Virus record (IMG/VR): IMGVR_UViG_2695420651_000024
Strand: one strand, 5' to 3'
Length of the DNA stretch: 42,748 bases
From: a virus
Taxonomy: Duplodnaviria > Heunggongvirae > Uroviricota > Caudoviricetes
Shown here piece after piece: positions 25,293 to 25,634 of this stretch. The notes below the pieces were generated by a model, which worked only from the letters and a program-made list of their open reading frames with translations, was not told the DNA's origin and searched no databases. Within the stretch, counting starts at the first letter, position 1. The number at the start of each line of letters is the position of its first letter. A program made the translations under genes and the position numbers.

Positions 25293-25634
25293 TTATCTTA
25301 CCTTGATGCCTGATGCCGTCAGATGTTTACGACAGTCCTGAATACCTTCGTTATAACCCGCATCGTAGAAGCTATCCGGCTTTGCCTTCAGCGCAGGAAG
25401 CGTAACGCTGGTAGCTCTTCGTTCGGCCAGAACACCTGCCTGAAAGAGTGTCCACATCAACTGAACTGCTGAATCACAGTAAGTAACATCTTCACTGTAC
25501 AATTCTCGTTCAATCCTGATGCCAAGTTGAGCCTTCATTGATGCGCCAATATTACCTTTGACCTGCAACGACAGGTCTGGGTACCTCTGTTCCATGAAGC
25601 TTTCAAATCTGTTGCGAACGCTGATCAGAGCCAT
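25293..25634 (-). CDS. Hypothetical protein (113 aa) between Q-like gene and late leader
   Basis: ORF only; no recognisable motif. Confidence 0.35.
   Translation of the reverse strand: MALISVRNRFESFMEQRYPDLSLQVKGNIGASMKAQLGIRIERELYSEDVTYCDSAVQLMWTLFQAGVLAERRATSVTLPALKAKPDSFYDAGYNEGIQDCRKHLTASGIKVR

Follow-up and report, generated by a model that had tools for sequence, protein, structure and literature searches.

A 113-aa open reading frame (ORF) that follows the antiterminator gene Q in an Escherichia coli prophage is a real protein-coding gene under purifying selection, not a chance ORF, and sequence comparison places it as an optional cassette between Q and the late promoter PR'. Our best explanation, to which we assign a probability of about 0.6, is that this cassette at the Q/PR' junction encodes a non-essential accessory protein of the lytic cycle, not a cofactor of Q. 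The gene lies in the window, by which we mean the whole analysed stretch of 42,748 nt (Caudoviricetes; IMG/VR record IMGVR_UViG_2695420651_000024). A sequence-only reading of this DNA had described the ORF (25293-25634, minus strand, 31 nt from Q) as possibly a regulator or an accessory gene; its coordinates and description were right, and of the two proposed roles the accessory one is now favoured. The gene is deleted in many similar prophages, and its homologues accompany four Q families at varied positions relative to PR' and the terminator tR'. Because the gene is optional and tied to no one Q family, its role would be accessory and outside core antitermination.

The Q junction and its probable late promoter

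Genes on the minus strand follow one another downstream in the order cro-like, VapE-type primase, Q, 113-aa ORF, holin S, endolysin, Rz and terminase (Table 1), with 427 nt of non-coding sequence between the ORF and holin S. The Q protein of the window is 44-46% identical to the Q proteins of Stx phages. The Shine-Dalgarno-like AAGGGA stands ~7 nt 5' of the ATG of the ORF, and a coding-strand promoter and terminator scan found no sigma70-like promoter and no terminator in the gap between Q and the ORF; in homologous loci this gap measures 3-31 nt. Since the gap holds neither signal, the ORF should be transcribed with Q, and co-transcription is probable on this ground. It would close the early rightward operon (cro-primase-Q-ORF) and share the transcript of Q, and its own ribosome-binding site would allow translation whenever Q is translated, at the early-to-late transition.

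Table 1. Features around the Q junction of the window and the segments lost in variant alleles
Feature	Position	Strand	Basis or detail
cro-like gene	28567-28767	-	
VapE-type primase gene	26377-28563	-	
Q antiterminator gene, Q21 family, 140 aa	25666..26088	-	PF06530 E=5e-42, phrog_79
Q-ORF spacer, 31 nt	25635..25665	-	Shine-Dalgarno-like AAGGGA read from sequence
113-aa gene (Phage_phiTE_015 / PHROG 343 family)	25293..25634	-	ATG start
286-bp segment deleted in related E. coli prophages	25345..25630	-	GG microhomology at junction; alignment to ON470579 and breakpoints
Interval between two GGCATCAGG direct repeats (25515-25523, 25309-25317)	25309..25523	-	repeats read from sequence
Late promoter (PR'-like): A-tract, -35, 17-nt spacer, -10	25257..25292	-	sequence comparison; function predicted
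-35 TTGTGG	25280-25285	-	
Conserved 17-mer TTGTGGAATTCCAAAAA, probable Q-binding region (predicted)	25269-25285	-	unique in window
-10 TAGCCT	25257-25262	-	
Predicted transcription start	near 25250	-	
Candidate -10-like AACAGT (putative pause element)	25238-25243	-	inference
Terminator T1: 12-bp stem, GCAA loop, U6	25201..25229	-	terminator-like ctRNA match and fold
Structured late leader RNA, ~300 nt	24946..25250	-	MFE -90.3 kcal/mol, z=-4.7
Terminator T2, just 5' of lysis genes	24946..24974	-	promoter/terminator scan
Holin S, first late gene	24506..24865	-	PF05106 E=1.2e-27, phrog_126

The sequence after the stop codon of the ORF reads AAAATAG-TTGTGG-AATTCCAAAAAGCCGAT-TAGCCT, with the motif starting 7 nt past the stop, and contains a conserved promoter motif, TTGTGGAATTCCAAAAA-N6-TAGCCT. 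This element matches the consensus too weakly for the generic promoter scan to report it, and A-11 and T-7 of its -10 are preserved in every relative aligned. Homologous loci carry exactly this 17-mer although the identity of their ORF proteins is only ~45%. The transcribed leader of these loci (TAAGAGTGGTyAC...CACAxCTTA, then a terminator) is the same as the leader directly 3' of Q in Stx phages, and the element in the window aligns with the Stx-phage PR' region. An Rfam scan of 24300-26500 returned only terminator-like matches below threshold.

We scanned IMG/VR for the 17-mer and obtained 57 matches, of which 14 were attributed to chance and 43 were kept. The motif starts 2-7 nt past an ORF of the 113-aa type in 25 of these 43 loci, with Q lying 347-380 nt upstream of it in the 23 that have enough upstream sequence; in the other 18, it directly adjoins the 3' end of Q or overlaps it, with no ORF interposed. 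Wherever enough upstream sequence is available, the non-chance loci all follow a Q gene of the Q21 family, either directly or via the ORF. Q of the 18 ORF-less loci is 62-71% identical to that of the window, a level of identity also shown by Q of the divergent ORF-bearing loci. One locus (L054), considered as having an extra insert between Q and the motif, proved to carry only a frameshifted Q.

Because the same 17-mer follows Q with and without the ORF, the comparison identifies the ORF as an optional insert between Q and PR'. The candidate PR'/qut-tR' unit (25201-25292) lies 3' of the cognate Q across relatives, directly or behind the ORF, and it combines a -35 and a -10 at 17-nt spacing (TTGTGG-N17-TAGCCT) with terminators before the late genes. 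From this we infer that the element after the ORF is the cognate late promoter of this Q21 subfamily. A competing late promoter overlapping the Q stop (TTGCGT-N16-CATAAT), which would place the ORF inside the leader, lacks conservation in relatives; it was rejected because the element after the ORF, unlike this candidate, is conserved and tracks Q. The sequence-only reading had proposed an ORF intervening between Q and the late promoter, a late leader downstream of it and co-expression with Q. The first agrees with the loci of both kinds and the second with the succession of promoter motif, T1, T2 and holin S; the third is supported by the empty 31-nt gap, which makes co-transcription probable. 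Such exact placement upstream of PR' is tidy and unsurprising for mosaic lambdoid genomes. It provides a clean sequence-level example of cassette insertion precisely at the Q|PR' boundary and gives one Q21 subfamily a conserved late-promoter motif of 17 bp.

Several other features of the region were observed. Around an (AT)5 tract (26277-26288), positions 26154-26409 hold about nine copies of TGGAACCAC/GTGGTTCCA, some in each orientation, which lie between the VapE-type primase gene, whose 3' end they overlap, and Q; repeats and an AT-rich tract in this arrangement have the layout typical of a replication origin with iterons. An extra copy of GTGTGGTTCC is located in the late leader near 25025. 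The prophage record ON470579 carries an opposite-strand 'hypothetical protein' (L002:3708-3914, equivalent to ~25079-25285 of the window) inside the promoter, T1 and leader, which is probably a spurious call. In the database protein P0022, the C-terminus of a Q21-type Q is fused in frame to an ORF homologue, and the reading frame continues through the TTGTGGAATTCCAAAAA promoter (...ACGIPKT...); this protein probably reflects a decayed locus or a gene-calling artefact.

The protein family and its conservation

Homologues of the 113-aa protein formed 14 clusters by sequence search and 38 with a profile (5.8 billion proteins; clusters at 90% identity). The clade is small: when 1.84 billion representatives were searched exhaustively with HMMER, only 13 homologues emerged. 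All clusters with a named source belong to the Enterobacterales (Escherichia, Rahnella, Yersinia, Serratia, Erwinia, Proteus, Providencia, Photorhabdus and Xenorhabdus). By the Nei-Gojobori method, dN/dS of the ORF is 0.062 in comparison with a homologue of 86% identity (dS 1.29) and 0.17-0.24 in the other pairs. Residues F10, E11, W61, G67, L79, P80, P86, D91, G93 and N95 are invariant in the alignment, homologues show very strong conservation of LPxLKxKPDxFYDAGYNEGIxDC(R/K)K near the C-terminus, and the motifs of the family remain invariant down to 33-45% identity. Conservation, on which the sequence-only reading had made the standing of the ORF depend, is thus evident from both the homologue clusters and the low dN/dS.

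The gene had also been called unrecognised, which is true of its function and not of its catalogue status: PF26207, PHROG 343 and a RefSeq name already cover it, and those families are of unknown function. Clusters P0001 and P0002, which are 99% identical to the protein, and most homologues have PF26207 (Phage_phiTE_015) as their precomputed assignment, and some E. coli copies bear the RefSeq name 'phiTE_015 family protein'. PHROG 343 (unknown function) matches the protein over residues 5-112 (E=2.8e-18) and matches 35 of 35 clade members. Furthermore, hhalign of the clade profile against phiTE_015 and two relatives gave 94.9% probability (E=4.6e-8; 88 columns, nearly full length). These profile matches assign the protein to a small Enterobacterales clade of PF26207 / PHROG 343. 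A Pfam scan gave no match at E<=1 with a Pfam copy that lacked the PF26207 model, NCBIfam and PADLOC scans returned nothing, a sequence-profile search of the PDB gave no match at E<=10, and a scan of genome contigs yielded no confirmed relatives. A search of the literature on phiTE_015, PF26207 and phrog_343 found nothing functional. Two other assignments were rejected. The 'head closure' label (phrog_15831) covers the C-terminal half only and was judged an annotation artefact because the gene sits in the early region; a paralogue of Q was considered, and the protein has no match to PF06530, PF03589, PF06323 or PF06576 (Pfam, E<=1).

The AlphaFold2 model (mean pLDDT 76, pTM 0.55) has three helices and a small sheet, with residues 29-46 forming a disordered variable loop. 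Foldseek against the PDB gave no fold match (best E=0.66), and its RuvC/Moc1 and BRCT rows are noise (TM<0.3). Against BFVD it returned only uncharacterised phage proteins, headed by the phiTE_015 homologue of Salmonella phage Seszw_1. Profile and structure searches, suggested with the original description, therefore yielded a family and no structural match to anything characterised.

Deletion alleles and homologues beside other Q families

The window prophage occurs in E. coli at up to 100% identity (ETEC H10407, O103:H2 12009, O55:H7 and other strains). Among 5,426 complete E. coli genomes, the full ORF region is found in 62, and 32 retain only its last ~50 nt and the promoter, so that the 286-bp deletion is present in no fewer than 32 genomes of E. 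coli. In the ON470579-type deletion allele, ATGG is fused out of frame to the 3' end, and the remnant would encode MVFRIAVNT*. The prophages with this allele keep intact Q, leader, lysis and terminase genes. Because such records were predicted in silico and do not come from isolated virions, they were set aside as proof of viability; the allele is likely to be viable. Recombination between the two GGCATCAGG repeats would explain the truncated variant P0015, and further frameshifted or truncated alleles of the ORF exist in databases. Alleles with the gene, without it and with it deleted are all present in sequenced strains, including ETEC H10407 and O103:H2 12009.

Homologues are located 3' of four antiterminator families, namely PF06530, PF03589 (lambda-Q), PF06576 (DUF1133) and PF06323 (Q82). 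A PR'-like promoter and a terminator separate Q from the ORF in the lambda-Q-type loci (L001, L028 and L030) and in the DUF1133-type loci (L034-L040), and in both types a second terminator follows the ORF. With PR' upstream and terminators on both sides, the ORF would be the first Q-dependent gene in these loci. Behind PR'-tR', in the lambda-Q, DUF1133 and Q82 contexts, the protein would be made only after Q acts. L027 has no terminator ahead of the ORF, and L032 has a Q21-type leader there. In L028 (4823-5420), the ORF is preceded by a lambda-Q-type PR'-tR' and followed by a vestigial leader of the Q21/Stx type with its terminator, an arrangement that reads as the scar of an antiterminator-module replacement.

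The neighbours of the gene also vary. Another small gene lies between Q and the ORF in Providencia, and the order in Serratia fonticola is Q-ORF-(Ogr/Com-like)-Mom-holin. Erwinia psidii has primase-Q...Q-ORF-x-holin, much like the window; its prophage (L108/L109:529-2989) contains two Q21-family antiterminator genes (123 and 133 aa) with two oppositely oriented genes between them, and the ORF occurs only after the second Q. In L033 (2799-6968), a Q82-type Q (PF06323), which NinG adjoins, is followed by ORF6N, HicA, HicB, the phiTE_015-like gene and then Phd-Doc, with a strong promoter/terminator and a tRNA-like 3' end between the last two. N6/N4 methylase or Mom genes lie downstream of the ORF in several Q-linked loci. 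Distant relatives, in virulent and temperate phages, reside in early-region clusters of small genes. In phiTE, phi_D3, Seszw_1 and swi2, the relative has a Lar-like restriction-alleviation gene next to it or within ~1.2 kb, and in BUCT618 it has a C5-methylase close by. Synteny in related prophages, proposed earlier as a check, holds: the Q-linked clade is always near Q across the four families, in the Q-to-lysis interval and surrounded by typical cargo, with a register relative to PR'/tR' that varies. The comparison thereby gives this clade of a Pfam family still uncharacterised a consistent genomic niche and an expression window, with Q or just after it.

Candidate functions and known systems

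As an accessory factor, the protein would not be part of the antitermination machinery. It is predicted to be small, soluble and alpha/beta, without a DNA-binding or enzymatic signature, and its invariant PDxFYDAGYNEG surface would most probably bind another protein. Our best guess at the target is a host function, in counter-defence or host takeover; that the protein is a protein-binding factor of this kind, acting through the invariant YDAGYNEG surface, is a tentative proposal. It derives only from the neighbours of the family (Lar-like genes, DNA methylases, Mom and toxin-antitoxin cargo), and the link is weak because methylase and Mom genes also follow Q in phages without the 113-aa gene. 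Alternatively, the persistent proximity to Q in all four families may point to a function connected with the late switch. For either a counter-defence factor or a late-switch modulator, the natural allele pairs would make testing straightforward. For now, the genomic comparisons leave it as an ordinary accessory gene in a known cargo niche.

The strongest rival, which we nevertheless consider unlikely, is that the protein modulates the early-to-late switch, either by tuning read-through or the loading of Q at PR' or by targeting RNA polymerase, sigma70 or NusA. Such a role would explain why the gene is retained next to Q whatever the Q family: all Q-linked homologues examined lie within 0-3 genes (up to ~1.5 kb) 3' of the antiterminator, across the four families. 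The ORF stop only 2-7 nt from the promoter motif and the in-frame fusion of the C-terminus of Q with the ORF in P0022 point the same way, but this fusion also reads through the promoter and so looks like decay or a gene-calling artefact. Against the modulator stand the absence of the ORF from 18 loci with the same promoter and a closely related Q, its deletion in at least 32 E. coli genomes, its unfixed position relative to PR'/tR', other cargo between Q and the ORF in Providencia and L033, and distant relatives in virulent phages with no antiterminator annotated in the flanks fetched. A narrower version, slightly less probable again, holds that the Q-linked phiTE_015 clade is a dedicated 'Q-junction' factor acting on sigma70-paused RNA polymerase at PR', or on NusA, and setting the timing or bistability of the early-to-late transition; four unrelated Q families would then have kept it because its partner is common to all.

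Cargo such as stx accumulates in the lambdoid Q-to-lysis interval, and the 113-aa gene, which lies in this niche, could on that view be a lysogen-expressed moron for lysogenic conversion or superinfection exclusion. In L027, the lack of a terminator between PR' and the ORF would permit constitutive expression. We regard this as improbable, given that the gene has no promoter of its own, sits within the repressor-controlled early operon in the window prophage, is shielded by tR' in most other contexts and encodes no signal peptide or membrane segment (sequence and AlphaFold2 model). No coding-strand promoter was found upstream of it, and the terminators downstream are those of the late leader. 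More doubtful still is a cytoplasmic lysis-timing regulator acting on the downstream holin: a lambda-S-type holin lies within 0-1 genes in the window and in Erwinia psidii, but the holins encoded downstream are of different families (PF05106; PF16931 with PF05449; PF16080) and are often separated from the ORF by methylase, Mom, tRNA or toxin-antitoxin genes, and the lysis cassette persists where the gene has been deleted. Finally, a chance or decaying ORF without a protein product, to which a common deletion and several alleles with truncations or frameshifts might point, is scarcely credible and already refuted by the selection analysis (dN/dS 0.06-0.24 at dS above 1), with the motifs invariant at low identity and the AlphaFold2 model confident across the conserved parts.

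Four known systems can be compared with the gene or with its neighbouring promoter. The prototype of PF26207, gene 015 of Pectobacterium phage phiTE (94 aa), is homologous to the 113-aa protein over almost its full length, with the common pattern RxxFE...W...V/ExLP...N-E/A-x-I-D-x-C...AG-x-x-V. Members of the phiTE_015 type belong to virulent or unrelated temperate phages and occur in early clusters with no annotated Q nearby, whereas the 113-aa proteins form a tight Enterobacterales prophage clade, always 3' of a Q antiterminator, with the PDxFYDAGYNEG motif and the variable 29-46 loop. The nin-region genes of lambda (NinB-NinH) are small, dispensable and delayed-early, on the same PR transcript as Q. 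The 113-aa gene is likewise small, dispensable and probably co-transcribed with Q, but it lies downstream of Q, whereas the nin genes lie upstream and have no sequence similarity to it. The lambdoid Q-to-lysis cargo (stx, tRNAs, DNA methylases, Mom and toxin-antitoxin modules) has its niche and its optional presence in common with the 113-aa gene, and in both cases expression depends on or coincides with Q. Classical cargo is found downstream of tR', whereas the window has the 113-aa gene ahead of PR' and within the early operon; the role of stx as Q-to-lysis cargo has been described (PMC7547250).

The closest counterpart of the window promoter is the PR'-tR' unit of Stx phages, in which PR' and tR' were mapped experimentally and the 258-nt unit is processed into the small RNA StxS (PMC7547250). 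The window element has the same promoter layout as this Q21/Q933-type unit (AAAATAGTT...AAAAA...-10), and the leader of the relatives is also like the Stx type (TAAGAGTGGTTAC...CACxxGCTTAA, then a terminator), whereas the transcribed leader of the window itself has diverged. With its unusually strong structure and its two terminators ~250 nt apart, the window leader resembles the 258-nt unit in layout, and by analogy a prophage sRNA from the late leader of the window is conceivable. The promoter overlaps the end of Q in Stx phages, whereas in the window the 113-aa gene is interposed between them.
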